DNA of 64,000 nucleotides from a virus (Duplodnaviria > Caudoviricetes): IMG/VR virus record IMGVR_UViG_2700988807_000001, positions 12,798 through 76,797 of that record. One strand, 5' to 3'. How positions within the stretch are numbered: position 1 is the first letter of the stretch; every line of letters begins with the position of its first letter. The notes beneath the pieces were generated by a model that saw nothing but the letters and a program-made list of their open reading frames with translations, was not told the DNA's origin and searched no databases. Below, one piece after another: positions 8,522-63,460 of the stretch. Position numbers and translations under genes: made by a program.

Positions 8522-9172
8522 TTGTCGTCTCGATCCCAGCTCTTCATTGAGGCGGTGTTTGCAGATCGTCGCACTCTGATCCATGAGTACGATCCTGTCA
8601 AAGCTCGTGAGTATTATTTGCGTACTCGAGAGCTCAAGGGTCGTCAGCCAGCCCAGGCCGAAGAGCCTGAGTCGGTTCGTAACGCTCGACAAGCGGCTGC
8701 TGCGGCTGAAGAAGCTAAGCAGAAAGTCGAAGCCGAGCGTAAGTCTCGTCGACAAGAGCTGAAGACCAAACTTGCCGACCTGGAGGCTCGACTCAAAAAG
8801 TTGAACGCCGCCATCAAGCAAGCCAAAGCTGCAGCGATGCGTCGAGCAGGGGTGTCTGAAGAAACCCTGAACCGAATGATCACCCAAGAGGTGAAGAGTC
8901 CTGGTAGTTCCAAAGGCATGAAAGACAAAGCCGAGGACTCGAAAGACTCAAAAGACTCGTCCGACTCTTCCGATGACAAACCGAAAACTGCTGCGCAAAA
9001 ACGAAAAGATGCCAAGGCGGCAAAAGAGCGGTATGAAGAAGAGAAGGACAAGAATCCCGAAGCTGATAATGGCGATGCTGAGCTTCAAGAACTACAGGAC
9101 AAGGTCGATTCGACTGCTGAGCGAATCGAGAAACTTCAAAAGAGAGTTCAAGCCATCGCCAGAATTGGCTGA
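8522..9172 (+). CDS. Coiled-coil head-associated protein
   Basis: TTG start after GGAGGAG; TLIH-EYDPVKAREYYLRTRELKGR followed by charged coiled coil. Confidence 0.7.
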   Translation: MSSRSQLFIEAVFADRRTLIHEYDPVKAREYYLRTRELKGRQPAQAEEPESVRNARQAAAAAEEAKQKVEAERKSRRQELKTKLADLEARLKKLNAAIKQAKAAAMRRAGVSEETLNRMITQEVKSPGSSKGMKDKAEDSKDSKDSSDSSDDKPKTAAQKRKDAKAAKERYEEEKDKNPEADNGDAELQELQDKVDSTAERIEKLQKRVQAIARIG

Positions 9173-12125: not shown

Positions 12126-13013
12126 ATGGTTGCAATTCAGTGGGACAAGACCGGCGAGCGGCTCTACGAGACCGGCGTCGATCACGGTGTCCTGTACATC
12201 CCTGACGCACAGGGCAAGTACGAGGTCGGCTACGCCTGGAACGGTCTGACGTCCGTCTCGGAGGCTCCCTCGGGTGCCGAGTCCAACCCGCAGTACGCGG
12301 ACAACATCAAGTACCTGGACCTCATCTCGGCGGAGGAGTTCGGCGCCACCATCGAGGCGTTCACCTACCCCGAGGCGTTCGCTCAGTGCGACGGTACCGC
12401 CATCATCGGCGGCATCCAGCTCGCTCAGCAGGTTCGTAAGAAGTTCGGGTTCTCCTACCGGACCCTCGTTGGAAACGACCTCGTCGGTACCGACTACGGT
12501 TACAAGATCCACCTGGTTTACGGCTGCCAGGCGGCTCCGTCGGAGAAGTCGCGTTCGACCGTCAACGACTCGCCCGAGGCTGCGACCTTCAGCTGGGAGA
12601 TCACGACCAGCCCGGTCGACGTTCCCGGCATCAACCCCTCGACGGGCAAGCCCTACCGTCAGACCGCCCACCTCACCATCGACTCCACGAAGGTGACGCC
12701 GGCGAAGCTGAAGGAGCTTGAGGACATCCTTTACGGCACCGCTGGTGTCGATCCCCGGATGCCCTACCCGGCCGAGGTTCTGGCGATGTTCGAGGGGGAC
12801 ACCATCGAGGTCTCCCCGGCCGCGCCGACCTACAGCTCCGCGACCAAGACCATCACGATCCCGACGACCCCTGGTGTGGTCTACAAGATCGATGGTAACC
12901 CGGTCTCGGGCAGTGTCGTCATCACCGAGGACACCGTTGTGGTTGCCGAGCCGGCTCCGGGCTACAAGTTCCCGTCGGTCACGGACGACGACTGGCTGTT
13001 TGACTACGCGTAA
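12126..13013 (+). CDS. Major tail protein
   Basis: YETGVDHGVLY..AWNGL..YADNIKY; strong codon bias; C-terminal Ig-like extension. Confidence 0.85.
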   Translation: MVAIQWDKTGERLYETGVDHGVLYIPDAQGKYEVGYAWNGLTSVSEAPSGAESNPQYADNIKYLDLISAEEFGATIEAFTYPEAFAQCDGTAIIGGIQLAQQVRKKFGFSYRTLVGNDLVGTDYGYKIHLVYGCQAAPSEKSRSTVNDSPEAATFSWEITTSPVDVPGINPSTGKPYRQTAHLTIDSTKVTPAKLKELEDILYGTAGVDPRMPYPAEVLAMFEGDTIEVSPAAPTYSSATKTITIPTTPGVVYKIDGNPVSGSVVITEDTVVVAEPAPGYKFPSVTDDDWLFDYA

Positions 13014-20200: not shown

Positions 20201-23072
20201 TACCCTCGCTGGCTCGGCAGCTCTCATGGTTGCTTCGCTGGCGCTGGCCATGCTTATTCCCCCGTTGCTGCTGCTTTCGGCAATGTCTTGGCAGGACCTT
20301 CTCACTGGTCTCGGCGGATTGGCCGGTATATTCACAGTCATCGGTCTGGCTGGTTTGCTATTGACGCCGGTTCTCCCAGCCATCCTTGGTTTGGGTGCCG
20401 CGATGGCAATGATCGGTGTCGGTATGGTTGCCGTCGGTGCTGGAGCATTGCTATTTTCCATGGCTTTGACAGCCGTGGTGAATGTCCTCGCTCTAGGTAA
20501 GACTGCTCTGGTTAATCTAGCAGACACATTCCCGCTATTGGCTACAAGATTCGGTGAGGCTATGACGGCCTTCATCGTTTCTCTCGGAGCCAATGCTGGA
20601 AAGATCGTTGGTGCTTTCAAGAACCTTCTGATCAGCATGCTCGATGCAGTTATCGAGATCGCTCCGAAGATCGGTGAAACGGTAAGTACGCTTCTCCAGA
20701 CCTTCCTGCAGCTGATCATCGATAATGCGCCAATGATTGGTCAAGCCTTCTCGACCCTTATCCAGACGCTTCTCAACATCGTCACGGAGAATGCGCCTCG
20801 TATTTGGGATGCGGGATTCAACCTCATCACGGGCTTCCTCGGAACCATTCGTGATCGAGTTCCTGAGATCGTCACTATCGCTACCGATATCATCGTCAAC
20901 TTCATCAACGCGATCTCCAGCAATCTCCCGAGAATCGTTCAGGCCGGTTTCGATCTGATCATCAACTTCCTGAACAGCCTTGCCGACTCCATTCGAGCAA
21001 ACAGCGGTTTGGTTACCGACGCCGCGTTGAACGTGGCTGACGCAATCATCGACGGTATGGTCCAGGGTATTTCTCGGGGCATCGGTCGAGTCGTTGACGC
21101 TGCAAAGAACATGGCGTCGAACGCTCTGAATGCAGCCAAGAATTTCCTCGGTATCAATTCACCGTCGAAGGAATTCCGTTACATTGGTGAGTGGGTTGGC
21201 GAGGGTTTCGTTCTTGGTATGGAACGAAGTGAATCCCACGTCAGAATGGGTGCCATATCCTTGGCCAAGACCGCTCTCAATGCTACGCAGCATGAGCTTC
21301 GTGGTATCGCCGGTATGTTCCAGGAAGCTTGGAGCATTCTGTCTGAGGGCGATTTCAAGGGAATCGGACCGTGGCAGGAAGACGATCCGATCGTCAACAC
21401 CCTCTTCAATATTCGAGAGGGTCTCGGTGGTATCGGTGCCGTGGCGCGAACCACCTGGGGTATTCTGGCTGAGGGCGATTATATCGGTAACGGCGGAATC
21501 ATGGAAGAAGATTCCCCGATCGTCGACACCCTCTTCAATATTCGTGAGGGCCTCGACAGGGTTGGTAAGACCGCAACCACGGTCTGGAGTATTCTCGCCA
21601 AGGGAGACTTCGTCGGAAACGGCGGAATTCTTGAGGAAGATTCTCCGATTGTAGATACGCTGTTCAACCTCCGCGAAGGTTTCGAGGCTGTCCAAGGCTC
21701 TGCCAAGGAAGCTTGGAACGTCCTCACCGAGGGCGACTTCAAGGGTGTCGGTATCTGGGAAGAAGACTCCCCGATTATCGATGGCCTCATGCGTATTCAC
21801 GAAGGGTTCGAAGACTTCCAGGAAGTTGGTCAAGACGCCATCCAGGGTCTGATCAATGGTCTTCAGAACGGCGCCAACAACGTCGCAAAGGCTGCTCACG
21901 ATATTGCGACCGGCGCTCTGGACTCGGCCAAGACGGCGCTCGGTATTCGATCTCCTTCGCGGGAGTTCAAGAAGGTCGGTGACGACTCGGTCCAGGGTCT
22001 TGTCAATGGCGTCAACGATGGTCTTGACAAGGTCGAGAAGTCCGGCGAGAACATGGCGACAAAACTCTTCGGCGGCTTCACCAAGAGTATTGGTACGGGC
22101 ATGCCCGACGTCGTCGAGTCCATCGTCAAGGTTCTTAAGAGTGGTGAGGGAGACCTCAACATTGGTGGTCCTAATGCTCCACTCACGTGGCAGCTGAAGG
22201 GTTTGAACCAGGCACTCAAGCAGACCGATCTGCAGTTGGCTATATTCTTCGGTGCTGTCGATGCGGCAGATCCGAAGGCTCTCGAAGAGTACGTCGAGAA
22301 GGCCGCTAACAACCTCACGTTCCTCGCAGGCATCTTGGACGGTTTGGCTAGCTCTGCTAATCAGGCGTTCGCGAAGCTCAAGGAGGGCGAGACCCTCGAT
22401 AAGGTTATCGGTAACGAGGACTTCCTCTCGGGGATCCTCAATGCCGTCTTGTCTCTGGTTCCCGGTGTGGAGGGTGCTGCGATTCGGCTCGGCGTCACTC
22501 TGGTGAACGGTCTGTTCGGAGCTATATTTGGAGAGACTCTTCTCGGGATGCTCGGAAACTTCGTCCAGAAGGCTATCCAAACGGTTGCCGGCTGGTTCGG
22601 AATCAAGTTCCCGGTCAAGGAGGAGATCAAGGAAGGCGAGAAGGCTCTCGAAGACTTCGTCGTCAAGGTCGAAGGTGGTGTCGGTAGGTTCAACAAGCTG
22701 ACAGAAGAGGGCGTTAAGGCTCTGACCAACACTCTCGCTGGCGTCAGCACTGCTGTTGACGACATCAACACCCAGCCGAAGATTACTCCGGTCCTTGAGC
22801 TGAAGCAATTCAACAAGGACAGTGCAAGCATGCTCAGTGGTCTCAACTCTGCTTCCATATCTTTGGATACGTCGGCAGGGAAGGCGGACACGCTCTTCGA
22901 CAAGCAGCGTGAGTTCGCTGAGAACCAGGCGGCTGTTGAGCAGGTTCAGCCGAACATCAACATCGAGTACAACCAAACGAACAATTCACCGAAGCCCATC
23001 AGTCATGTCGAGGTTTTCCGACAGACTAAGAGCCAACTATCACTGACTAAGGAGGCGTTGAAGGTATCATGA
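17220..23072 (+). CDS. Tape measure protein
   Basis: About 1950 aa, Ala/Gly-rich helical repeats, N-terminal tape-measure domain, precedes Dit/Tal-like genes. Confidence 0.92.
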   Translation: MSLIEDLIVGMKFDNKQFEAGARITMATLAQLKGSMNFTGASKGIDDVQASVNRFSMDSAGAGVDTFSAKFVALSTVAITALSNITNRAIDAGINIAKALTITPVKDGFDEYELKMGSIQTIMANTSKHGTTLQEVTANLDELNTYADETIYNFGDMTKNIGLFTNAGIGVADATKMIKGFSNEAASSGTSAQGAAGAAYQLSQALSAGQITLMDWRSLTNVGMGNKNMQEGIVQIADAMGAFSGTGITANDVLKDFNGSLEKKWLKADVMENYLKIQAEGNEEVSRAMMKQIGLSDQQADAFIKQQKIAQDAATKVRTWTQLVGTIKEGVGSSWAQTADIILGDFDQATDLFSGIYNKIDPLIGAMGKARNDLLKGWADGGGRDDMVASINNVIDGLVSIMRPIKEAFQNIFPPATAANLISITAAIKNFTEKLKIGGETADKLKRTFSGVFAIFGIAWEVIKGVASAFGKLFGAVGQGGGGFLSLTAKIGDFLTKIHAAIKSGGVFTKIFEVLGTVLAVPIKIFGNLTEAVANFFGALGNLGGAIGQVYGILAKGDFKGGPFSEDSKIVDILFRIREAFEVVGSAVSQFWNILAKGDFVGGVFGEDSAIVDGLFKFRDMIKDFFSPGNLTKMLGIGAGGGLAVAIGMLLKKGIKFGVDDSEGGMFDTIKGMFAGIKGTFESVSGVLDSLTGSLTAMQNNIKATVLLKIAAAVGLLALSVKLLSTIDAGDLAKSMAAIATGFGMLLGAMTVMSKISGAGGLATFPAIAAGMMLMAGAILILAAAAKVFATMDWDEILKGLVGVGVMMAALVGAAYGLGKAEGPMLRAGLAMIPLAIGIRILATAVKALGDMEWDELVKGLIGMSVALGAITLALKFMPEGMPAIGLGLTLIGAGLLVVAMAIKTMGNTDTDALVKGLIGISVALGAITLALRFMPKNMPSIGFGLIMVAGALQLITGAIKTMGNMSWDELIRGLVGLGGAMAIMTVALSLMSGTLAGSAALMVASLALAMLIPPLLLLSAMSWQDLLTGLGGLAGIFTVIGLAGLLLTPVLPAILGLGAAMAMIGVGMVAVGAGALLFSMALTAVVNVLALGKTALVNLADTFPLLATRFGEAMTAFIVSLGANAGKIVGAFKNLLISMLDAVIEIAPKIGETVSTLLQTFLQLIIDNAPMIGQAFSTLIQTLLNIVTENAPRIWDAGFNLITGFLGTIRDRVPEIVTIATDIIVNFINAISSNLPRIVQAGFDLIINFLNSLADSIRANSGLVTDAALNVADAIIDGMVQGISRGIGRVVDAAKNMASNALNAAKNFLGINSPSKEFRYIGEWVGEGFVLGMERSESHVRMGAISLAKTALNATQHELRGIAGMFQEAWSILSEGDFKGIGPWQEDDPIVNTLFNIREGLGGIGAVARTTWGILAEGDYIGNGGIMEEDSPIVDTLFNIREGLDRVGKTATTVWSILAKGDFVGNGGILEEDSPIVDTLFNLREGFEAVQGSAKEAWNVLTEGDFKGVGIWEEDSPIIDGLMRIHEGFEDFQEVGQDAIQGLINGLQNGANNVAKAAHDIATGALDSAKTALGIRSPSREFKKVGDDSVQGLVNGVNDGLDKVEKSGENMATKLFGGFTKSIGTGMPDVVESIVKVLKSGEGDLNIGGPNAPLTWQLKGLNQALKQTDLQLAIFFGAVDAADPKALEEYVEKAANNLTFLAGILDGLASSANQAFAKLKEGETLDKVIGNEDFLSGILNAVLSLVPGVEGAAIRLGVTLVNGLFGAIFGETLLGMLGNFVQKAIQTVAGWFGIKFPVKEEIKEGEKALEDFVVKVEGGVGRFNKLTEEGVKALTNTLAGVSTAVDDINTQPKITPVLELKQFNKDSASMLSGLNSASISLDTSAGKADTLFDKQREFAENQAAVEQVQPNINIEYNQTNNSPKPISHVEVFRQTKSQLSLTKEALKVS

Positions 23073-23899: not shown

Positions 23900-25294
23900 A
23901 TGGATCTCGTAACGCTAAAGGATTGGGTATATCCAACACTTCCGACCCATCCGTGGTACGTTCCTGACGATGCTGTTGGACGCGAGAGTGATCCGCTATA
24001 TTCGACGCCGTCGCCTAAGCAGCCGGGGGTATACACACCTCTGAATCTCATCGAGGGCTACACGTCGCTCATTTGGAAAGAAAGCTTTGCCGGCACCAAC
24101 GGCACGTTCGAGCTCAAAACCTACGACGTTCAAAAGACTCTCGATGCGCTTCCCAAGGGTACGCTGGTTAGCCTCCTCGATACCGACGAGGTCTACATCG
24201 TTACGACTCGCCACATTGGTACGGACGAAGGTGGGGTGGACACGCTTACGGTCTCGGGCGTGAGCATTCTGAAGTTCCTTCTCGATAATCGAATCACCTG
24301 GTCGTACGACCCAACAACCCCGACGCCTATTCGTGCAACCAACGTGAATTTGAACTTCAGGATCCCGGACCACCTAGCGTTTATTTTGTGGTCGGGTCTC
24401 GTCTTCCACCATCGCGAAGGTGGTGTCAGCGGAGGTAAGCCGTTCGAACTTCCGTATGACATCACTGTTCCTCACACGGCAGTGTCTCAAAGTCTGTATG
24501 ATCCGTCCAAGGGCGATCTATATTCGACCGAGTGGCCTCCACCAATCGAGTATCGTATTACTTCGATAAACGATCTCATGGCTTTGACGCAGAGGTTTGG
24601 CGTCAGAACAATTAGGCCTCGTGGTGGGTCTGCTTGGATTTACAAGCCTTCATTGGCGTCCAAGTTTGGTGAGTATGATCCGCTGGTGATGCAGACAAAC
24701 ATCGACAAGATGCTGTTTGACGTCTATGAGGGTCTTGATCGAACTAAGGCTGACGCGAATCGGATCGTGTTTCGGCACGATGCCGGCGATATTGTCAGTT
24801 CGGAATTCTTGGATTCCATCGAAACGTTCAAGAACGTCGTGAATTCACACGCTGAGGTTGATCCGACTAAGACCGCTTTCTCGAACATGTTTCCTCCGGT
24901 TGTTTCCAAGATCCACTACGCGACTGGGTTGCCGGGAAGCACGCCGGCGGACAATGTCAAACCGGGAACACAGTTTTTGATGGGCGAGGTTGCGTCGACC
25001 GCCGACTTGAAGAACTACGGCCTAAACGCGGCTACCAGCGCTCGTATGTCAGCCGACGCATACAAGTATCTTCGAGACAACAAGCGCATCGACATGTTGA
25101 CTGCCGATATTTCGCCCGACACGCAGTACAAGTACAAAGTGCATTACAACCTTGGAGACATTGTCTACGTGCAGGGTAAGTATGGCGGGCTGCAGAAGAT
25201 GGTGGTCTCTGAATACACCCGCACATCCGAGAACATCGGTGAGAGCGGATACCCGACACTGGTACGATGGGAGGACCCAAGTGGTAGCACCTAA
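23900..25294 (+). CDS. Minor tail protein (baseplate hub / Tal-like)
   Basis: YTSLIWKE..GTFEL; C-terminal YKVHYNLGDIV..VSEY. Confidence 0.7.
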   Translation: MDLVTLKDWVYPTLPTHPWYVPDDAVGRESDPLYSTPSPKQPGVYTPLNLIEGYTSLIWKESFAGTNGTFELKTYDVQKTLDALPKGTLVSLLDTDEVYIVTTRHIGTDEGGVDTLTVSGVSILKFLLDNRITWSYDPTTPTPIRATNVNLNFRIPDHLAFILWSGLVFHHREGGVSGGKPFELPYDITVPHTAVSQSLYDPSKGDLYSTEWPPPIEYRITSINDLMALTQRFGVRTIRPRGGSAWIYKPSLASKFGEYDPLVMQTNIDKMLFDVYEGLDRTKADANRIVFRHDAGDIVSSEFLDSIETFKNVVNSHAEVDPTKTAFSNMFPPVVSKIHYATGLPGSTPADNVKPGTQFLMGEVASTADLKNYGLNAATSARMSADAYKYLRDNKRIDMLTADISPDTQYKYKVHYNLGDIVYVQGKYGGLQKMVVSEYTRTSENIGESGYPTLVRWEDPSGST

Positions 25295-26103: not shown

Positions 26104-26145
26104 TCGCAAAAATTACACACCCTATAATGAGACCCCTATGAAAGG
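26104..26145 (+). promoter_or_regulatory. TCGCA-N14-TATAAT promoter-like element plus GAGACCCCTATGAAAGG leader, copy 1
   Basis: Conserved repeat directly upstream of the ORF at 26153. Confidence 0.8.
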
Positions 26146-26598: not shown

Positions 26599-26640
26599 TC
26601 GCATGTAAAACACACTATATAATGAGACCCCTACGAAAGG
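26599..26640 (+). promoter_or_regulatory. Promoter plus leader, copy 2
   Basis: TCGCATGTAAAACACACTATATAATGAGACCCCTACGAAAGG. Confidence 0.8.
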
Positions 26641-27407: not shown

Positions 27408-27449
27408 TCGCACAAAATACACACTATATAATGAGACCCCTACGAAAGG
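27408..27449 (+). promoter_or_regulatory. Promoter plus leader, copy 4
   Basis: TCGCACAAAATACACACTATATAATGAGACCCCTACGAAAGG. Confidence 0.8.
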
Positions 27450-27672: not shown

Positions 27673-27714
27673 TCGCATATTTAACACACCTTATAATGAG
27701 ACCCCTACGAAAGG
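27673..27714 (+). promoter_or_regulatory. Promoter plus leader, copy 5
   Basis: TCGCATATTTAACACACCTTATAATGAGACCCCTACGAAAGG. Confidence 0.8.
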
Positions 27715-28044: not shown

Positions 28045-28086
28045 TCGCAGGAAAAACACACATTATAATGAGACCCCTACGAAAGG
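28045..28086 (+). promoter_or_regulatory. Promoter plus leader, copy 6
   Basis: TCGCAGGAAAAACACACATTATAATGAGACCCCTACGAAAGG. Confidence 0.8.
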
Positions 28087-28375: not shown

Positions 28376-28400
28376 TCGCAGAAAAAACACGCGCTATAAT
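28376..28400 (+). promoter_or_regulatory. Promoter copy 7 (no mRNA leader; precedes tRNA-like RNA)
   Basis: TCGCAGAAAAAACACGCGCTATAAT. Confidence 0.75.
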
Positions 28401-28486
28401 GAAAGGAAAGACTCGTAGCTCAGTTGGAATGAGCGTCGTCAGCAATGACGAAGGTCGCAGGTTCGAGTCCTGCCGAGCTTTCCTTC
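28401..28486 (+). ncRNA. tRNA-like RNA lacking a canonical anticodon loop
   Basis: D arm GCTC-AGTTGGAAT-GAGC, T arm GCAGG-TTCGAGT-CCTGC, middle arm TCGTCA-GCAA-TGACGA, extended bulged acceptor-like stem, no CCA. Confidence 0.75.
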
Positions 28487-28753: not shown

Positions 28754-28795
28754 TCGCATGTAAAACACACCATATAATGAGACCCCTACGAAAGG
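28754..28795 (+). promoter_or_regulatory. Promoter plus leader, copy 9
   Basis: TCGCATGTAAAACACACCATATAATGAGACCCCTACGAAAGG. Confidence 0.8.
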
Positions 28796-29104: not shown

Positions 29105-29146
29105 TCGCATATTTTACACACCCTATAATGAGACCCCTATGAAAGG
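29105..29146 (+). promoter_or_regulatory. Promoter plus leader, copy 10
   Basis: TCGCATATTTTACACACCCTATAATGAGACCCCTATGAAAGG. Confidence 0.8.
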
Positions 29147-29753: not shown

Positions 29754-29795
29754 TCGCAGAAAAAACACACCCTATAATGAGACCCCTATGAGAGG
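29754..29795 (+). promoter_or_regulatory. Promoter plus leader, copy 11
   Basis: TCGCAGAAAAAACACACCCTATAATGAGACCCCTATGAGAGG. Confidence 0.8.
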
Positions 29796-31852: not shown

Positions 31853-32095
31853 ATGCACCACAAACAAGATCGTGAATTCACCTATGAGACGGGCACGGAC
31901 GAGCCCCTCAATCCGGACCCGGCCATCGCCGCAAGTATGACGGAGCAGGGCGTCAGCAAGTGCGAGAACAGTTGCAAGCTCTACAAGCATCCGCGAGCAG
32001 ACATCATCGTCCTCGCACACAACTCGTCGTACGGATGCAAGCGCACCAAGTCCCATATCGTGAGTGAGTTCACGGAGGCGAACATCAATGCCTGA
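31853..32095 (+). CDS. Hypothetical protein (Cys/His-containing)
   Basis: GGAGGA RBS. Confidence 0.6.
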   Translation: MHHKQDREFTYETGTDEPLNPDPAIAASMTEQGVSKCENSCKLYKHPRADIIVLAHNSSYGCKRTKSHIVSEFTEANINA

Positions 32096-33535: not shown

Positions 33536-33577
33536 TCGCAGAAAAAACACGCGCTATAATGAGACCCCTATGAAAGG
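33536..33577 (+). promoter_or_regulatory. Promoter plus leader, copy 12
   Basis: TCGCAGAAAAAACACGCGCTATAATGAGACCCCTATGAAAGG. Confidence 0.8.
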
Positions 33578-34455: not shown

Positions 34456-35097
34456 ATGCTGAAGCAGACCGTCGAGTACACCGACTTCGATGACAACCGT
34501 TGCGCCGAGACGCTCTATTTCAATCTCACCAAGACCGAGCTTGCAGAGAACGCTCACCTGCAGGATCGTCTCGAGTCGATGCAGAAGATGTTTGGTGGTG
34601 AGAAGCGTCAGCTCGAGAGCGCGGAGATCAAGGAGATCCTCGAACTCGTCAAGACGATCATGCGTATTTCCTACGGTGTTCGCAGTGCCGATGGCAAGCG
34701 ATTCATCAAGACGGAGGATCAGTGGGTCGAGTTCACCCAGACGGCCGTCTACGACGAGTTCCTCATCTCCATGTTCACGGATCCGGACAAGATGTTCGCG
34801 TTCATGTACGGGATCATGCCGGCTGACATGCGCGATCAGGCAAAGGCCGAGGCCGAGCGACTTGCAGCGGAGCGTTCCATTTCTCAGGCAGCTCAGAACA
34901 CTCAGGCTCCGACTCCGCCGGCTCCTCCCGCCGCTCCTGCTGCGATGACCACGGGTGTCCCTACCAACCCGCCTGTGGATATTGTGGTCAACGAGCAGCC
35001 GGCAGCCGGTCAGCCCACCCAGGAACAGATGGCTGCTTACCTGCGCGATCAGCAGGCTCGTGGCGGACTGACCCAGCCGGGCTACTTGCAGGGCTGA
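34456..35097 (+). CDS. Conserved phage protein with Pro/Ala-rich tail
   Basis: YTDFDD..LYFNLTKTE..SYGVRSADGKRFIK. Confidence 0.7.
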   Translation: MLKQTVEYTDFDDNRCAETLYFNLTKTELAENAHLQDRLESMQKMFGGEKRQLESAEIKEILELVKTIMRISYGVRSADGKRFIKTEDQWVEFTQTAVYDEFLISMFTDPDKMFAFMYGIMPADMRDQAKAEAERLAAERSISQAAQNTQAPTPPAPPAAPAAMTTGVPTNPPVDIVVNEQPAAGQPTQEQMAAYLRDQQARGGLTQPGYLQG

Positions 35098-35106
35098 TTC
35101 ATATTT

Positions 35107-35222
35107 GAGGAAGAGGGGTTTGGCAAGGGTCCTTTGTAGGGGTCTCGCCCTAGTCCGGATGCCAAACTTAAACGACAGCCGTAGTGCTGTGGGGAAGCAG
35201 CGAATCATGCTCCCTCGACCTC
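35107..35222 (+). ncRNA. Putative sRNA antisense to the cassette mRNA leader
   Basis: Intergenic; stems GTTTGGCA/TGCCAAAC, AGGGT/GCCCT and ACAGC/GCTGT; loop CCTTTGTAGGGGTCTC is complementary to GAGACCCCTAC(G)AAAGG. Confidence 0.6.
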
Positions 35223-35256
35223 ACCACACACCTATATTTGAGTTGAAAGGATCGTC

Positions 35257-35643
35257 ATGCCTACCATCGATCAAGTCAAGACGCACCTCCGTGAGAACAA
35301 GAAGGTCTATATTGTCGGTGGCGCCTGCCTCGCGGTAGGTGTCCTGGCTGGAACGACTCTTCTTACCAAGGAGTCCCCTGAGATTGTGGTAAACCCCAAG
35401 ATCCAGCAGATCATGAGCTGGAAGCCGACAGCAACGTTGAAGGTGCATATCGAGGCGCTTGGAGATCCAGGAAACATCATTCAGGACGTCACAACAGGAA
35501 CCGTCTATGCAAGCCAGGGACAGGCGGCTCGAGCTTTGGGCGTCAATCCCGCGCGCATATCTGAGCACTTGTCTGGAAAGATTCCTAACGTGCAGGGTCA
35601 CTCATTCAAGTTCTTGGGTAAGGCTGACTCAATCGCAGGATAA
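35257..35643 (+). CDS. TM-anchored protein with NUMOD1-like HTH
   Basis: N-terminal TM; TGTVYASQGQAARALGVNPARISEHLSG. Confidence 0.65.
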   Translation: MPTIDQVKTHLRENKKVYIVGGACLAVGVLAGTTLLTKESPEIVVNPKIQQIMSWKPTATLKVHIEALGDPGNIIQDVTTGTVYASQGQAARALGVNPARISEHLSGKIPNVQGHSFKFLGKADSIAG

Positions 35644-35958: not shown

Positions 35959-36000
35959 TCGCAGATAAAACACGCCCTATAATGAGACCCCTACGAAAGG
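35959..36000 (+). promoter_or_regulatory. Promoter plus leader, copy 14
   Basis: TCGCAGATAAAACACGCCCTATAATGAGACCCCTACGAAAGG. Confidence 0.8.
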
Positions 36001-47687: not shown

Positions 47688-48457
47688 TCTCCGATCCTTG
47701 CCGGCCCGAGAAGCCGAACGAGCTATATTTCGTGACGGATCGATTCCCCCGACAGACGCGCTACTACTGGATTCTCCAGACACACGAGGGTTCGGTCATC
47801 GGCACGTCCAACGAGACATATCCCGACAAGGCTGCCGCCATGCGTAATGCGCTTACGCTCTTCGGCCGAGAGATCTTTGCCGGCTATCACCAGGTGGTGG
47901 ATGACGACGATCGCGAACTCATCAGCGACGAGGCGTGGCAGATGGAGAAGCACAACCATATTTCACGTGAGGTGAAGTTGGATGGAACGTGCCCCTCTTG
48001 TACGTACGTCATCGAGGCGTCGGGCCCGGAGGAGAAGAAGAGTTACATCATCGCCAATGCTCGCCCGAAGCGTCTCACCTTCAGTTACATGAAGAAGCAC
48101 AATGGGGAAGAGCACTTCTGGCGCCTCAGCACTTACGATGGGGCATATTTGGACTCTTCTCGGATGCCTTTCAAGACGTTGAGCTCAGCGATCAACAACA
48201 GCATCTCGCACTTCGGTGTCGATCTCATCAATGAGCTCAAGATTCTTGTCGATGCGGAACCCGATATTCGCAACGAGGTCTTCAACGGAGTTCGGTGCAT
48301 GTTCCCGAATGTCGAGAAGCAAGCTGACGTTCCTGATCTGACTCTGGATCGAGCAACTGCCGCTCAGAAGGAAGAGCTCAGTCTACTGACGAATGTCCTT
48401 CAAGGCGAAGTTGTTGCAAACACAGGCCCCGACCGTTCTAGCGTAGAGAAGGTCTGA
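47684..48457 (+). CDS. YegP/DUF1508-like paralog 3 (two domains)
   Basis: PNELYF..YYWILQTHEG and PKRLTF..HFWRLSTYDG. Confidence 0.65.
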   Translation: MISDPCRPEKPNELYFVTDRFPRQTRYYWILQTHEGSVIGTSNETYPDKAAAMRNALTLFGREIFAGYHQVVDDDDRELISDEAWQMEKHNHISREVKLDGTCPSCTYVIEASGPEEKKSYIIANARPKRLTFSYMKKHNGEEHFWRLSTYDGAYLDSSRMPFKTLSSAINNSISHFGVDLINELKILVDAEPDIRNEVFNGVRCMFPNVEKQADVPDLTLDRATAAQKEELSLLTNVLQGEVVANTGPDRSSVEKV

Positions 48458-53944: not shown

Positions 53945-54501
53945 TTATGACGCCGAGAATTGACTGGACGTTGCTCTCGAACGAATGGGAGAAGTTCTGG
54001 ATCGCATTCCGAGACGAAGAGAACAAGGCTACAGTTCTCAATGCGTTCTGGAACATGCGTGGTGGTAGAGGTCGATATTTCTACACAGGAGCAAGTGGTC
54101 TCGAGTTCCCAAGAGGACGCTATCCGGTTGGCGATGATGGATCCGAGAGCATCTACACCGTCACGCCGTTAGACAAGTTGAAAGGACAACCTTCATCAGA
54201 ACCTGTAAAACCTCCGAAGGAAGTGGAACGTGTCACAGCGATCCATATTCTGATCGAGGACGGTGGACGAACCGTCATGCTCGGAGAGAATGCGAAGATC
54301 ATCTCTTGCATGATTCCGAAAGACTCGAGCAGTCACATCAAGGTCTGGGTTCAGGACGACTCGGGGTCGGCTCTTCGCAACTACAAGTTCACTCTTCTCG
54401 GTGAGTTGAACGTCGTTCCCGAAGGGTCATATTTCGTCCAGACGATCGTGGACAAGGACGATCATCCCTGGCACATCTACGTCCAGAAGCTCGAAGCGTA
54501 A
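53941..54501 (+). CDS. Hypothetical protein, N-domain shared with 53471
   Basis: IDWTLL..FWNMRGGRGRYF. Confidence 0.65.
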   Translation: MIMTPRIDWTLLSNEWEKFWIAFRDEENKATVLNAFWNMRGGRGRYFYTGASGLEFPRGRYPVGDDGSESIYTVTPLDKLKGQPSSEPVKPPKEVERVTAIHILIEDGGRTVMLGENAKIISCMIPKDSSSHIKVWVQDDSGSALRNYKFTLLGELNVVPEGSYFVQTIVDKDDHPWHIYVQKLEA

Positions 54502-55950: not shown

Positions 55951-56901
55951 ATGAACAACGACACAATCGCCGCCGAACTGGGGCGGTCTCTCAGTGAGAT
56001 TCGGAACACGCTTCTCAAAGAGTTCACGAAGATGGCGGCACCTGAGGGAACGTTCGACGAGGTCTCTACGCATTCGATGCTGGTGGAGTACATCGAGATC
56101 TGCCGGCAGTACCGGGAAGAAGCCGCTACCAAAATCGAGATGCTGATTCAAGAGGACTTGAAGCATCCGAGACTCAAGCCTGAACTAGTCGTCCCAGAAG
56201 TGGTCGATGCTCGGGAATCTCTGAATGCGATCGTCGTTTCATGCGGAGGCGAAGTCATAGAGGACGAGAACCTTCGCCGCTTGGCTCAGCGAGCGGCAGA
56301 CTTGTCTCGGAACCGAGCGCGAGTGATGAGCAACAATGAGGTCGAGAAGGTCAACGAACACATGATGTGGACTTACGTCGCAGCGCTCGAAAATGTTCTC
56401 GGGATCTACACGCTAAGGCCCACGTTGGACAGTCGCAAGCAGGCCATCATCGACAAGCTCGCAGGAACCAGTCGCATAGATGTTCTAGATCGTGTTCTCG
56501 AAACTCTGGGTGGCACTCCAGATCCTAACGAGGATAAGGCTGCACTCAAGGCTCGTGTAACTCGAATGACGAGGGAGGCGTTGGGGATGACCAACGGGAT
56601 CGAGACGAACCTCTCCTACAGCGATGGTTACAAAGCGTCCGAGGAGATTCGCAAGAGTCTCGTGGGGATTCTTGAAGCTGCAGGCAAGACGGTGGAGCCG
56701 GATGAGTCGCTGTTCTATATTTCCGGTCGAGTGCAGGAACTCGTGGGGCAGCTGACCAAGTGCATCAGTACTCCGAGTCTGGAGGCAATCGAGAACGGTC
56801 TCAAGAAGATCATTCAGGATGCCGGCGTTACGGTTCGCGACGATGCGAGTCTGGTCGAGTTGGCGGCTCGTGTCCAAGCTCTGGTCGAGAAGACTCACTG
56901 A
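55951..56901 (+). CDS. Helical repeat protein, paralog of 54539
   Basis: ELGRSL..RNTLL; repeated L..I...G.....ESL..LA.R. Confidence 0.7.
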   Translation: MNNDTIAAELGRSLSEIRNTLLKEFTKMAAPEGTFDEVSTHSMLVEYIEICRQYREEAATKIEMLIQEDLKHPRLKPELVVPEVVDARESLNAIVVSCGGEVIEDENLRRLAQRAADLSRNRARVMSNNEVEKVNEHMMWTYVAALENVLGIYTLRPTLDSRKQAIIDKLAGTSRIDVLDRVLETLGGTPDPNEDKAALKARVTRMTREALGMTNGIETNLSYSDGYKASEEIRKSLVGILEAAGKTVEPDESLFYISGRVQELVGQLTKCISTPSLEAIENGLKKIIQDAGVTVRDDASLVELAARVQALVEKTH

Positions 56902-56910
56902 TTCACACCC

Positions 56911-57011
56911 ATATTTACAGGCTCGTAGGGGGCTCTAAACTGCTCTCTACGGGCCTGTAATATGGGGAATGCACAATCCTGTGAAGTAGGGGTCTCAAGG
57001 CTTCACAGAGG
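56911..57011 (+). ncRNA. Putative two-hairpin RNA; second loop antisense to the cassette leader
   Basis: TTACAGGCTCGTAGGGGGC/GCTCTCTACGGGCCTGTAA stem, then CTGTGAAG-TAGGGGTCTCAAGG-CTTCACAG. Confidence 0.5.
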
Positions 57012-57045: not shown

Positions 57046-57109
57046 GAGAACCCACTAACGAAACCAGACTCAGGCCCTCAACTGAGATCCAGGTCGTTGG
57101 TGGGTTTTC
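57046..57109 (+). ncRNA. Putative small hairpin ncRNA
   Basis: GAGAACCCACTAACGA/TCGTTGGTGGGTTTTC stem enclosing CTCAG-GCCCTCAA-CTGAG. Confidence 0.55.
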
Positions 57110-60745: not shown

Positions 60746-63460
60746 GTGCTAATCGATGAAGATGACTACTTGGCGCACTACGGTATTCTGCGTCGTTCGG
60801 GCAGATACCCTTGGGGTTCAGGTGGTACTCCTGAGCAGAACCATCGATCCTTCTACGGCATGATCGAAGCTATGCGTGCCGAAGGTATGAGTGATGCGGA
60901 GATCGCTAAGGGTTTCGGTATCTCGACTCGTGACTACCTCGCTCTCAAGTCCATCGCGGGCAACGAGATCAAGGCTGCCAATCGTGCTCGAGCTGAGATC
61001 CTTCGAGCTACCGGCATGTCGAACAAGGCAATCGCTGAAGAGATGGGTCTCGCTGGCGAGTCTTCGGTTCGTTCTCTGTTGGCTCCTGGTGCTGCCATGC
61101 GAGCTGATCAGAACCAGGCAGTTGCCGATCTTCTGAAGGATCAGATCAAGGATGGTGGATACCTCGACATCGGAGCCGGCAACGAGCTCTATGTTGGGAT
61201 GTCTCGTACCCAGTTCGATACTGTGATCGCTGGTCTTCGTAATGAAGGTTACGTCGTCCATCCGGTTCAGGTCGATCAGGTGGGCACCAACACCAAGACT
61301 CTGATCAAGGTTCTTGCTCCTGAAGGCACCGAATACAAGGACATCGTTACGAGTCCCGAAGACATCAAGTCCATCGCTGTCAAGCTCAAGGATGGCGAGA
61401 TCGAACACATCCGTCCTCCCGAGATGCTGGACTCCAAGCGAGTCAAGGTTGTCTATGCAGAGGATGGCGGCACTGAGGCTGACGGTACTATGTACATCCG
61501 TCCTGGTGTCAATGATCTGGATCTTGGTGGCGCTCAGTATGCGCAGGTTCGTATCGCTGTTGATGGCACGCACTACCTCAAGGGTATGGCTGTCTACAAG
61601 AGCGACCTTCCTCCTGGCGTCGACGTTGTGTTCAACACCAACAAGTCGGACACGGGCAACAAGCTCGATGCTATGAAGAAGATGAACCGGCTTCCTGAGC
61701 TCGATGCCAACGGCAAGGCAGTCAAGGATGCAAAGGGTGAGACTGTCTTCACTGACAAGATCGACATCTCTAATCCTTTCGGTGCAACCATCAAGCCTGG
61801 TGGTCAGCGTGGGGTACTGAATGTTGTGAATGAGGAAGGCGACTGGAACAAGTGGTCTAAGAACCTCGCGTCTCAGATGCTTTCGAAGCAGCAGCCTACG
61901 CTGGCTAAGGAACAGTTGGATCGTCTCTTCGGAGACAAGAACTCTGAGCTCAATGAGATCATGGCTCTGACCAACCCTGCAGTCAAGAAGAAGTTGCTTC
62001 AGTCCTATGCCGATGGTGTGGATGCTGATGCCGTACATCTTCAGGCAGCTGCCATGCCTCGTCAGGCAACACAGGTCATCCTTCCTGTGAGTGGTCTCAA
62101 GGACACGGAGATCTATGCTCCGAACTTCCGCAATGGTGAGCGCGTCGCTCTGATTCGCTACCCTCATGGTGGAACCTTCGAGATCCCTGAGCTCACTGTG
62201 AACAACCGACATCCTGAAGCTAGGAAGCTTCTTGGTACCTCGCCTAAGGATGCTGTCGGTATCAACTCCAAGGTTGCTGAACGTCTGTCTGGTGCGGACT
62301 TCGATGGCGATACTGTTCTCGTCATCCCTAACAGTTCGGGTAAGATCAAGAGCACGCCAGCTCTCGAGGGTCTTAAGAACTTCGACCCTAAGGCTAGGTA
62401 CCCAGCTTACGAGGGTATGAAGCCTATGACTGCTAAGCAGAAGCAGCAGGAGATGGGCAGTGTCTCTAACCTGATCACCGACATGACAATCAAGGGTGCC
62501 AACTCTTCCGAGATTGCTGCAGCTGTTCGTCACTCGATGGTTGTGATTGATGCTGAGAAGCATAAGCTCAACTACAAACAGTCTGCCATTGACAACAACA
62601 TTGTCAGTCTCAAGAAGAAGTACCAGGCTCGACCAGATGGTACTCCTGGTGGTGCGGCAACTCTGATCTCTCGGAGTACTTCTGAGGTTCGAGTCAACGA
62701 GCGCAAGATCGGTTACAAGATCAATCCCGACACAGGCGAGAAGATCTTTACCGAGACAGGCAAGGGTTACACCAAGACCAAGGTCAACCCTAAGACTGGT
62801 GTGATTACGGAGAAGTTCATCCCCCGTACACAGAAGTCTACTAAGGGTGCGGAAGCTAAGGATGCCCACTCTCTTTCTTCGGGTACTCGAATGGAAGAGA
62901 TCTATGCGGATCATTCGAATCGTCTGAAGGCTTTGGGTAACTCTGCTCGGAAGTCTTTGATGGCTACGAAGTCGACACCCTATTCCGACTCTGCTCGTAA
63001 GGTGTACGCCACCGAAGTAAAGTCCCTTGATGCGAAGCTCAACATCGCACTCAAGAACGCACCCCGTGAAAGGCAGGCCCAGCTCATAGCCAATGCCACC
63101 ATCAAACAGAAGCGTGATGCTAACCCGAACATGGAGCATGACGAACTGAAGAAGGTGAAGGCTAAAGCATTGGTCACTGCTCGTGCTCGAACAGGCGCAA
63201 GCAAAGAGCTGATCAACATCACTGACAGTGAGTGGGAGGCTATCCAGGCTGGAGCAGTGAGTACATCTAAGCTCACTAAGATCCTGGACAACACCAACCT
63301 TGATCGAGTCAAGGAGCTGGCTACCCCTCGCAAGAACACAGTGATGACCGACCTCAAGCAGCAGCGTGCTCGTCAGCTACTCGCAAGCGGGCGCACTCAG
63401 TCTGAGGTTGCCGACATCCTTGGCGTTCCCCTATCCACCCTCTCGTCTAGCTTGAAGTAA
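60746..63460 (+). CDS. Putative single-subunit two-barrel RNA polymerase with HTH domains and N-terminal HYG tag
   Basis: QVRI..KG, LIRYP, RLSGADFDGD (GADFDGD at 62291-62311), VIDAEKH; HTHs at both ends; starts DYLAHYGILRRSGRYPWG. Confidence 0.75.
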   Translation: MLIDEDDYLAHYGILRRSGRYPWGSGGTPEQNHRSFYGMIEAMRAEGMSDAEIAKGFGISTRDYLALKSIAGNEIKAANRARAEILRATGMSNKAIAEEMGLAGESSVRSLLAPGAAMRADQNQAVADLLKDQIKDGGYLDIGAGNELYVGMSRTQFDTVIAGLRNEGYVVHPVQVDQVGTNTKTLIKVLAPEGTEYKDIVTSPEDIKSIAVKLKDGEIEHIRPPEMLDSKRVKVVYAEDGGTEADGTMYIRPGVNDLDLGGAQYAQVRIAVDGTHYLKGMAVYKSDLPPGVDVVFNTNKSDTGNKLDAMKKMNRLPELDANGKAVKDAKGETVFTDKIDISNPFGATIKPGGQRGVLNVVNEEGDWNKWSKNLASQMLSKQQPTLAKEQLDRLFGDKNSELNEIMALTNPAVKKKLLQSYADGVDADAVHLQAAAMPRQATQVILPVSGLKDTEIYAPNFRNGERVALIRYPHGGTFEIPELTVNNRHPEARKLLGTSPKDAVGINSKVAERLSGADFDGDTVLVIPNSSGKIKSTPALEGLKNFDPKARYPAYEGMKPMTAKQKQQEMGSVSNLITDMTIKGANSSEIAAAVRHSMVVIDAEKHKLNYKQSAIDNNIVSLKKKYQARPDGTPGGAATLISRSTSEVRVNERKIGYKINPDTGEKIFTETGKGYTKTKVNPKTGVITEKFIPRTQKSTKGAEAKDAHSLSSGTRMEEIYADHSNRLKALGNSARKSLMATKSTPYSDSARKVYATEVKSLDAKLNIALKNAPRERQAQLIANATIKQKRDANPNMEHDELKKVKAKALVTARARTGASKELINITDSEWEAIQAGAVSTSKLTKILDNTNLDRVKELATPRKNTVMTDLKQQRARQLLASGRTQSEVADILGVPLSTLSSSLK

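Follow-up and report, generated by a model that had tools for sequence, protein, structure and literature searches.

According to our analysis, positions 35106 to 35223 of the window, which is the whole 64,000-nucleotide (nt) stretch analyzed here (positions 12798 to 76797 of the 76,797-bp virus record of phage G000), probably encode a plus strand structured RNA domain belonging to a family not previously described. The apical loop of this 118-nt element carries an anti-leader, that is, the reverse complement of a leader box with which ten protein-coding cassettes of the window begin. The sequence of the element, its covarying fold, its complementarity to the box, and the co-occurrence of the two across phages are observed, and sequence comparison makes it a well-supported new structured RNA motif which is not in Rfam. 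A preliminary description of this DNA had proposed a small RNA (sRNA) acting on the leaders of all the cassette mRNAs at once. The part of that proposal which concerns a selected, folded plus strand element with covarying stems and an invariant loop core has stood, whereas the ATATTTG motif could not be upheld as a signal specific to the element. We deem the functional claim plausible, and we assign a probability of roughly 0.45 to the reading in which the RNA of the element functions by pairing with the leaders.

Covariation and folding of the element

A structure string with the helices P0a, P1, and P2 was tested on two alignments, one of 20 sequences made with MAFFT and not fitted to the structure, the other of 23 sequences, including those of Scap1, Psst2, and Argan, fitted to the covariance model, a procedure which leans towards the model. 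In the MAFFT alignment, 94.6% of the 354 cells pair and double changes occur at 7 of the 18 pairs; none of 500 shuffles reached the observed values on four of the five measures, the exception being the further pair types (186 of 500), and controls in which the 3' partners were slid by 1 to 3 columns gave 28 to 63% pairing. The model-fitted alignment showed 96.3% pairing cells (34 to 62% in the equivalent controls) and double changes at 13 of the 18 pairs, with no shuffle out of 500 reaching the observed value on any of the five measures. Here, both sides have changed at six of the eight pairs of P1, where 99.5% of the cells pair, and at all seven pairs of P2. The two stems which had been drawn around the anti-leader, AGGGT/GCCCT (P2) and the longer one below it (P1), are therefore present, and both show covariation among phages of three host genera. 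The element, whose covarying helices number three, qualifies as a conserved structured non-coding RNA motif in the generic sense.

The terminal stem P0 joins both ends of the element in the minimum free energy (MFE) folds of all 20 distinct homologues, and P1 is formed in 18 of them, as judged by reading the folds. The outer arms of P0 are unrelated in sequence between lineages and complementary throughout, with TGAGG/CCTCA in the window, GGTATGG/CCATACC in Gill, GAGATG/CATCTC in HotFries, and TAGCATG/CATGCTA in Petito. Cognate arms pair with a mean energy of −8.74 kcal/mol versus −4.46 kcal/mol for non-cognate arms, and none of 2000 permutations reached the observed mean. The fold is a branched domain and not a rod with a bubble, and the covariance model R1 matches the window at 35102-35236 with 92.4 bits (E value, 1.5e-23). 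No Rfam family was found at gathering score in the whole window, nor at E values up to 10 in 35000-35350. From the MAFFT alignment, RNAalifold retrieved P0a and P1 and proposed a different inner pairing, which we attribute to indels that misalign the P2 columns. A crossing helix GCGAGA/TCTCGC, checked by eye, is not retained in the window, where GGAAGA allows just 3 pairs.

As for the strand, 28 of the 354 cells of the MAFFT alignment are G-U pairs, corresponding to A-C mismatches on the opposite strand, and the plus strand folds better than the minus strand in 14 of the 20 sequences. The annotated neighbor genes of the element in the window all lie on the plus strand, as do the annotated genes around it in the fetched loci, where the sole minus strand gene is one in Loretta, which is free of the element. 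Together, the covariation, the G-U pairs, the strand folds, and the gene orientation point to a plus strand RNA and not to a DNA site.

Regarding the display of the loop, its 9-mer core GTAGGGGTC, when constrained to be unpaired, lies in a loop of 13 to 17 nt with P2 stacked on P1 in 10 of the 11 distinct domains, and this displayed fold is the unconstrained MFE in 4 of the 11. We take the displayed form to be the conserved one since P2 shows true two-sided covariation; the alternative fold, in which the 9-mer is sequestered, is possibly a lineage-specific switch. The interaction energy, computed as the duplex energy plus the opening costs against each phage's own leaders, is −18.1 kcal/mol in this window, −6.8 to −11.3 kcal/mol in Gordonia phages, and −14.0 to −18.6 kcal/mol in HotFries, and the loop is accordingly predicted by these calculations to hybridize favorably with the leaders after the opening costs. 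RNAcofold found no interaction, this program being unable to represent loop-to-linear pairing.

Leader box and its complement in the loop

The leader GAGACCCCTAYGARAGG occurs in ten copies in the window, exclusively on the plus strand, where 0.04 are expected and none of 100 shuffles reached ten. All of them start right after ACACNNNNTATAAT, within a longer TCGCA-N14-TATAAT unit; ACACNNNNTATAAT itself is found in 14 exact copies and in 16 copies at up to one mismatch (expected, 0.98). One more coding cassette, after 27146, carries the variant leader GAAACCCTCGACGAAAGG, so that the motif count confirmed the ten cassettes with a common leader plus one variant that had been reported. The box is confined to coding cassettes, and the promoter copies driving non-coding RNAs are devoid of it, as had also been noticed, at 28387 (before the tRNA-type gene 28409-28483), 28510, and 35644, and likewise at the variant promoter 57032. 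The 50-bp intergenic motif of the Gordonia cluster DJ phage Vardy corresponds to the same promoter and leader repeat, with its TATAAT −10 sequence and a downstream region extending to the start codon; in the part of that work which deals with the motif, direct repeats alone are reported, with no mention of an inverted copy or of a structured element (PMC9671010).

On the plus strand, CCTTTGTAGGGGTCTC at 35131-35146 is the reverse complement of the leader with one bulged G, the leader having one extra G relative to the anti-leader. A search with the one-base-shorter leader pattern returned exactly one reverse-strand match, with no mismatches, in the whole 76,797-bp genome and none in the backwards-read control; the anti-leader is thus where it had been placed and is the sole reverse-strand copy in the genome. 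G35136 sits opposite the C/T position of the leader, in accordance with the suggestion that it can face either the C or the U variant. When the entire plus strand was scanned for duplexes with the 16-mer, the ten leaders ranked first to tenth (−25.2 to −27.1 kcal/mol), ahead of a next target at −20.4 kcal/mol.

The extent of the complementarity varies among lineages. In the two Rhodococcus phages it spans leader positions 1 to 11 and 13 to 17, AAAGG included, while Gordonia phages show GACCCCUAYG plus a weak UUCC:GGAA contact; it is limited to GAGACCCCUAC in HotFries and to nine bases in Psst2.

Distribution of the element and co-occurrence with the box

The nearest record of the phage collection is that of Rhodococcus phage ReqiPoco6, with ~85% identity over the matched parts. 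There the element is identical from GGGGTTTGGCA to CAGCCGTAG (35115-35181, 100%), compared with ~85% for the flanking genes. A blastn search with the 171-nt gap gave matches of ~76 to 80% identity in about 50 Gordonia phages, within DNA that is unannotated, and a search with the Gordonia version at E values up to 1e-3 retrieved 66 records, of which 55 are from Gordonia, 9 from Streptomyces, and 2 from Rhodococcus phages; the model also detects the element in Scap1 and Psst2. There is one copy of the element per genome, as found by searching the window and the loci with the covariance model. The 9-mer core shows no variation among the 20 sequences of the MAFFT alignment and is kept unchanged in 22 of 23 apical regions; Psst2 has GAGGGGTCTC, and the Argan apex is devoid of the 9-mer.

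Four metagenome DNA contig sets contain related phages in which 35087-35210 shows no differences where covered, coverage being full in X1 and X4, up to 35196 in X3, and without 35107-35157 in X2. This invariance says little, since in these sets the gene that follows varies hardly more than the element does. A looser pattern found 116 stretches in viral contigs, 11 of them with TTAAAC downstream, of which nine were real copies and two were chance matches. A three-block pattern was discarded: it found one stretch each in metagenome and genome contigs, both being chance matches in unrelated DNA.

In the 16 genomes checked, box and anti-leader are either both present or both missing. We identified 11 box-bearing genomes, all of which contain the anti-leader: this genome, Poco6, Conley, Gill, Crocheter, HotFries, LibertyBell, Secretariat, Scap1, Psst2, and Pherobrine, the last of which is counted on the strength of the element and of 7 of the 10 promoters listed for it. 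Forward/reverse counts of GACCCCTA are 9/2 in Poco6, 11/1 in Conley, 12/2 in Gill, 9/1 in Crocheter, 7/2 in HotFries, 12/2 in LibertyBell, 11/1 in Secretariat, 8/2 in Scap1, and 9/6 in Psst2; they are 0/0 in Shiba, Tenno, Loretta, and BitterVaud1 and 1/0 in both Argan and Qui. In Shiba, Tenno, Loretta, Qui, and BitterVaud1 the box is present in 0 or 1 copies, the same as in backwards-read controls, and a model search at E values up to 1 detected no convincing element in these five, the only match being an off-site one in Loretta (13.8 bits; E value, 0.09). In the Arthrobacter phage loci of Tenno (8661-8752) and Loretta (8652-8748), the syntenic gap contains no more than a simple hairpin rich in G+C, with a TCGCA-N14-TATAGT promoter behind it; in Tenno, the hairpin loop is TCATATATTTGG.

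The Arthrobacter phage Argan harbors a homologue of the scaffold at the syntenic site, right after the gene homologue (25.6 bits; E value, 4e-5), with P1 built from different bases and CTTAAACGAC retained. Its seven TCGCA-N14-TATAAT promoters have unrelated leaders and no box, and in a duplex scan with the Argan apical region none of Argan's leaders was among the top ten targets. A scaffold without the anti-leader indicates that the scaffold is older or wider than the box-loop pair, the two halves of which go together.

Further copies of the 9-mer and signals for expression

Besides its position in the loop, the 9-mer abuts or overlaps the promoter TCGCA in Gill, in HotFries, and at two sites in Psst2, where, together with the box of that promoter, it makes up a 10-bp inverted repeat with the two arms 33 to 41 nt apart. 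In LibertyBell, a copy lies 35 nt before a leader; this rests on position only, and the arrangement is probably the same. The bracketed promoters are located at 31884-31932 in Gill, 22692-22736 in HotFries, 48115-48157 and 54111-54151 in Psst2, and 25225-25267 in LibertyBell, with a 9- to 10-bp inverted repeat formed by the 9-mer before TCGCA and GACCCCTAC after TATAAT-GA. Read-through RNA at these promoters would fold into a hairpin occupying the leader box, and the 9-mer copies speak for a role of box pairing, in read-through transcripts, for instance.

A second hairpin, with TAGGGGTCTC in its loop, lies at 56978-57011; ReqiPoco6 has the same stem and the same TAGGGGTCTC and departs from the window in the 3' part of the loop. 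Just 5' of it, in the 468-nt gap after the gene 55951-56901, a very stable long hairpin is found on the plus strand (56908-56965). The 106-nt stretch 56905-57010 has a folding energy of −56.8 kcal/mol (z = −9.3), and a near copy of the anti-leader, CGTAGGGGGCTC, lies within the hairpin.

With respect to transcription starts, two promoter-driven non-coding RNAs (28524 and 57046) fold from the first base after TATAAT (z = −2.4 and −5.2, respectively), which hints that transcripts begin with GAGA and that the box would lie at the extreme 5' end of the mRNA. The one at 57046-57109 (plus strand) is a candidate promoter-driven small RNA of ~64 nt, which folds (−35.2 kcal/mol; z = −5.2) as a perfect rod that starts at the base following TATGAT and extends to a T-run; promoter copies in Gill and Pherobrine have the similar start GAGAACCCACTTAGCG. 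The plus strand gene 60746-63460 encodes a 904-amino-acid (aa) protein with helix-turn-helix matches at both ends and a weak match to PF05183 (RdRP) at residues 509 to 609 (E value, 0.0045). It corresponds to the putative YonO/crAss-like single-subunit RNA polymerase that has been proposed for the supercluster of this phage, as far as the relevant part of that preprint goes (bioRxiv 10.1101/842583). This protein may read the TCGCA-N14-TATAAT promoters, and a reading of the promoter that departs from sigma-70 fits such a helix-turn-helix, RdRP-like protein.

The preliminary description had also pointed to an ATATTTG motif before the anti-leader. The motif is present at 35101-35107, and many phages have it on either side of the element; the upstream occurrence is lacking in 5 of 20 variants (Gill, Avazak, HotFries, Annihilus, and LibertyBell). 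It is not specific to this segment, ATATT being found 172 times on the plus strand of the window versus 6 times on the minus strand, and such genome-wide occurrence makes ATATTTG not acceptable as a dedicated promoter. The bias is densest in 26000-64000, affects coding and intergenic DNA alike, and amounts to 120:0 for ATATTY in the right arm, where ~6 CATATT would be expected from base composition. Poco6, Gill, Crocheter, and Secretariat share the same bias, and strand counts elsewhere are 140:0 in Conley (40 kb), 22:5 in Loretta (moderate), 31:17 in Tenno (weak), and 18:17 in Shiba (no bias). A processing, priming, or nick site are possibilities for the role of ATATT.

Proposed mechanism and alternative explanations

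We infer that the element is transcribed and acts in trans, and the sign and timing of its effect are part of the same proposal. The RNA would most likely be part of, or processed from, the transcript of the upstream gene 34456-35097. P0 and the long P1-P2 helix would hold up the apical loop of 13 to 17 nt, the core of which, GUAGGGGUC, is the complement of the GACCCCUAY box predicted near the 5' end of the mRNAs from TCGCA-N14-TATAAT promoters. The loop might then nucleate an RNA-RNA duplex with the first 10 to 17 nt of the box-bearing mRNAs, extending into the Shine-Dalgarno sequence in the Rhodococcus version and more weakly in that of Gordonia phages. Accumulation of the RNA would lower the translation and/or alter the stability of all the cassette mRNAs together, and the 9-mer copies just upstream of some promoters would exert the same effect in cis on read-through transcripts. 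In its most extended form, which we hold to be less likely than not, the proposal describes a modular "master antisense" RNA with an older scaffold (as in Argan, without the anti-leader) and a loop programmed for the 5' tag of one promoter class, switching 9 to 12 independently transcribed cassettes, while cis 9-mers silence read-through copies.

Several observations weigh against leader pairing in trans. A scan around 35098-35256 revealed no sigma-70-type promoter and no plus strand terminator-like site at the borders of the element; on this strand the helices are not followed by the T-run of an intrinsic terminator, P1 being succeeded by TTAAAC and P0 by CCACACAC, and the scan lists a minus strand terminator-like site at 35190-35175, where no genes lie on that strand. 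No RNA data set was found in a search of sequencing runs. Seven of the 11 MFE folds pair the 9-mer with the leader-like 3' strand of P2 (ACCTCTAT, CCCTAG), and exposing the 9-mer costs 3.1 to 7.3 kcal/mol. If transcription started ~7 nt after TATAAT, in a sigma-70-like manner, GAGAC would be left out of the mRNA. The 9-mer as the left arm of inverted repeats at promoters makes a DNA-level or purely cis role possible, and Argan has the scaffold without the anti-leader, so the scaffold must have a function of its own. The co-occurrence of box and anti-leader may reflect a small number of independent evolutionary events, because the phages compared are related, and the leader core is nearly invariant in all lineages, with the box unchanged in most of their promoters, which leaves no room for base-by-base covariation of leader and anti-leader. 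Moreover, the complement of the Shine-Dalgarno sequence is not conserved, being CCUUU (CCTTT) in the two Rhodococcus phages, UUCC in Gordonia phages, and absent in the Streptomyces phages HotFries and Psst2. This dependence on lineage argues that the conserved feature is pairing with the 5'-proximal box and not the blocking of the Shine-Dalgarno sequence, and hence that translation, stability, or both could be affected.

Instead of regulating in trans, the element could be a structural RNA acting in cis only, as a module for processing, stability, or insulation at the 3' terminus of the mRNA of the upstream gene or at the 5' terminus of the next one. The scaffold would then do the work, and the loop would match the promoter-flanking repeat for other reasons, for instance, as a cis partner of the next leader on read-through. 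Such a module would agree with an element that has neither promoter nor terminator of its own in the scan, with the conservation of the Argan scaffold, and with the paired terminal stem, which is typical of stable processed RNAs. It would also suit the box-bearing promoter found within ~60 to 100 nt 3' of the element in Poco6, Crocheter, Eddiemania, and Duffington, as well as the 9-mer copies lying in cis 33 to 41 nt upstream of leaders elsewhere. We nevertheless regard it as rather unlikely, since the 9-mer is still invariant in Pepy6, Conley, Gill, Secretariat, and Rickmore, where the next gene is without a box promoter and no cis partner is near. A mere structural module does not need a 9-nt loop that is invariant across three host genera, and loss of the anti-leader coincides exactly with absence of the box.

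A protein could also be the partner of the loop, either the putative phage RNA polymerase, bound by a 6S-like mimic of the template strand at the start of the transcribed region, or a leader-specific RNA-binding factor. The loop is indeed the template-strand sequence of positions 1 to 11 after TATAAT, and the genome encodes the 904-aa RdRP-like protein, which resembles a proposed polymerase in the portion of the preprint concerned (bioRxiv 10.1101/842583). The non-coding RNAs that fold from the first base after TATAAT hint at a start there, unlike that of sigma-70, and the conserved unpaired CCGG and CTTAAACGACA could be protein contacts. However, the mimicry covers the transcribed part only and neither TATAAT nor TCGCA, no resemblance to 6S RNA and no Rfam match were found, and the promoters of the non-coding RNAs share the promoter and not the box, which is therefore not needed for recognition by the polymerase; we judge this explanation improbable. 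Slightly less credit still is due to a DNA-level site, with the 9-mer as the inverted half-site of a box-binding regulator or as a portion of a replication origin close to the primase/polymerase module. The box does abut the promoter, the inverted copy abuts TCGCA at some promoters, and in all lineages a co-directional DNA primase/polymerase gene lies five to six genes downstream of the element. Such a site leaves unexplained, though, the compensatory changes in three helices, the one-strand G-U pairs, and the terminal arms that are lineage specific yet always complementary. As for a chance match or the decaying relic of an inverted promoter cassette, the minus strand bases upstream of the copy (CTAGGGC) share CTA with CTATAAT, but the expected number of matches is ~0 and 35115-35181 is fully conserved in ReqiPoco6 against ~85% in the flanking genes. 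Conservation in ~66 records and the covariation on both alignments effectively refute this origin, to which we concede hardly any probability. Leader pairing by the RNA of the element is, among these explanations, the one that we favor.

Comparison with known regulatory systems

The c4 RNA of phages P1 and P7 is contained within a longer co-directional transcript and controls translation through exposed loops complementary to a region at or near the ribosome binding site. Both c4 and the actinobacterial 6C RNA are families included in Rfam. Like c4, the element is phage encoded and folded, has no obvious gene of its own, and is predicted to present a loop complementary to a short region of its target messages. 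Unlike c4, which targets one operon (icd-ant) in temperate enterobacterial phages, it would address 9 to 12 separate predicted leaders in lytic actinophages, and the two share no similarity of sequence or structure, the element having no Rfam match even at E values up to 10. The sar RNA of P22 and the OOP RNA of lambda are small phage antisense RNAs that pair near the translation start or the 3' end of a phage mRNA. They are encoded in cis opposite a single target, to which they are fully complementary, whereas the element lies on the same strand as its distant predicted targets and matches them over 9 to 16 nt. In T4, RegA and RegB likewise represent one phage product acting on a short motif that many early mRNAs have in common where their translation is initiated, with joint shut-off; these are proteins, a translational repressor and an endoribonuclease, while here the proposed agent is an RNA.

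Among actinobacterial RNAs, the 6C sRNA of Mycobacterium tuberculosis, as described in the relevant part of the source, base-pairs with several mRNAs via its loops without a known chaperone (PMC6486639). It is a host RNA with C-rich loops (PMC6486639), in contrast to a predicted phage RNA whose G-rich loop would face a C-rich 5' box, and there is no homology between them, the Rfam library having given no match for the element. In the literature searched, we found no description of the inverted leader copy or of the structured element.

Coordinates and gene neighborhood

The coordinates of the features discussed are collected in Table 1.

Table 1. The structured RNA element, the second anti-leader hairpin, and the predicted target leaders in the window
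Feature	Position	Strand	Remarks and basis
Structured element as a whole, 118 nt, with P0 as its closing stem	35106..35223	+	Covariance model R1, homologue folds
P0 5' arm, TGAGG..GAGGGG	35106..35118	+	Pairs with 35209-35223
P1 5' arm, GTTTGGCA	35118..35125	+	Pairs with 35160-35167
P2 5' arm, AGGGT	35126..35130	+	Pairs with 35147-35151
Apical loop, anti-leader CCTTTGTAGGGGTCTC	35131..35146	+	Core GTAGGGGTC at 35136-35144
P2 3' arm, GCCCT	35147..35151	+	Overlaps leader-like CCCTAG, the alternative partner of the anti-leader
3' internal loop, AGTCCGGA	35152..35159	+	Conserved, CCGG invariant; alignment columns
P1 3' arm, TGCCAAAC	35160..35167	+	Alignment, covariation
Single-stranded CTTAAACGACA	35167..35177	+	Columns (nearly) invariant; also retained in Argan scaffold
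Small hairpin ACAGC-CGTAGT-GCTGT	35175..35190	+	Variable domain; sequence not conserved among lineages
P0 3' arm, GCTCCCTC..CCTCA	35209..35223	+	Fold, arm permutation test
Second hairpin, TAGGGGTCTC in 14-nt loop, stem CCTGTGAAG/CTTCACAGAGG	56978..57011	+	Stem and TAGGGGTCTC as in ReqiPoco6
Leader box copy 1	26129..26145	+	Predicted target; motif search, duplex scan
Leader box copy 2	26624..26640	+	Motif search, duplex scan
Leader box copy 3	27433..27449	+	Motif search, duplex scan
Leader box copy 4	27698..27714	+	Motif search, duplex scan
Leader box copy 5	28070..28086	+	Motif search, duplex scan
Leader box copy 6	28779..28795	+	Motif search, duplex scan
Leader box copy 7	29130..29146	+	Motif search, duplex scan
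Leader box copy 8, GAGAGG variant	29779..29795	+	Motif search, duplex scan
Leader box copy 9	33561..33577	+	Motif search, duplex scan
Leader box copy 10	35984..36000	+	Motif search, duplex scan

In every fetched locus the element lies directly 3' of the homologue of the gene 34456-35097, in DNA that is unannotated. This plus strand gene encodes a 213-aa protein matching the Pfam family PF23803 (Phage_TAC_17, tail assembly chaperone; E value, 2.9e-55) despite its distance from the tail genes, and it serves best as a synteny anchor when the element is compared between host genera. A tblastn search with the 213-aa protein retrieved 55 Gordonia, 11 Streptomyces, 2 Rhodococcus, and 63 Arthrobacter records and a few others. 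Just 3' of the element, the plus strand region 35257-35643 and its homologous sites are a hot spot for an extra small gene, which is not found in Poco6, Crocheter, Eddiemania, and Duffington and is annotated as an HNH endonuclease in Pherobrine. In the window, this small gene gives a weak I-HmuI NUMOD-like match (E value, 0.0065), which suggests a free-standing homing-endonuclease insertion.

A protein-coding reading of the element, based on the plus strand open reading frame 35105-35338, was ruled out since the homologues differ by indels of 1, 2, and 4 nt. With ARAGORN and the Rfam tRNA model, the element was not recognized as tRNA-like or as a tmRNA, the only tRNA-type call in the window being the gene at 28409-28483.

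Implications

If the RNA is made and pairs as proposed, it would be, as far as the literature searched is concerned, the first regulatory RNA described in actinobacteriophages and one of the rare examples of a single phage RNA that targets an entire promoter class via a shared 5' tag. This would also explain why a non-coding leader of 17 nt is near-invariant in Rhodococcus, Gordonia, and Streptomyces phages whose proteins are 30 to 65% identical. The ~55 SEA-PHAGES cluster DJ isolates, which grow on harmless Gordonia hosts, offer an easily testable system. As a natural orthogonal pair, the loop and the tag could be used in actinobacteria as a compact translational switch.

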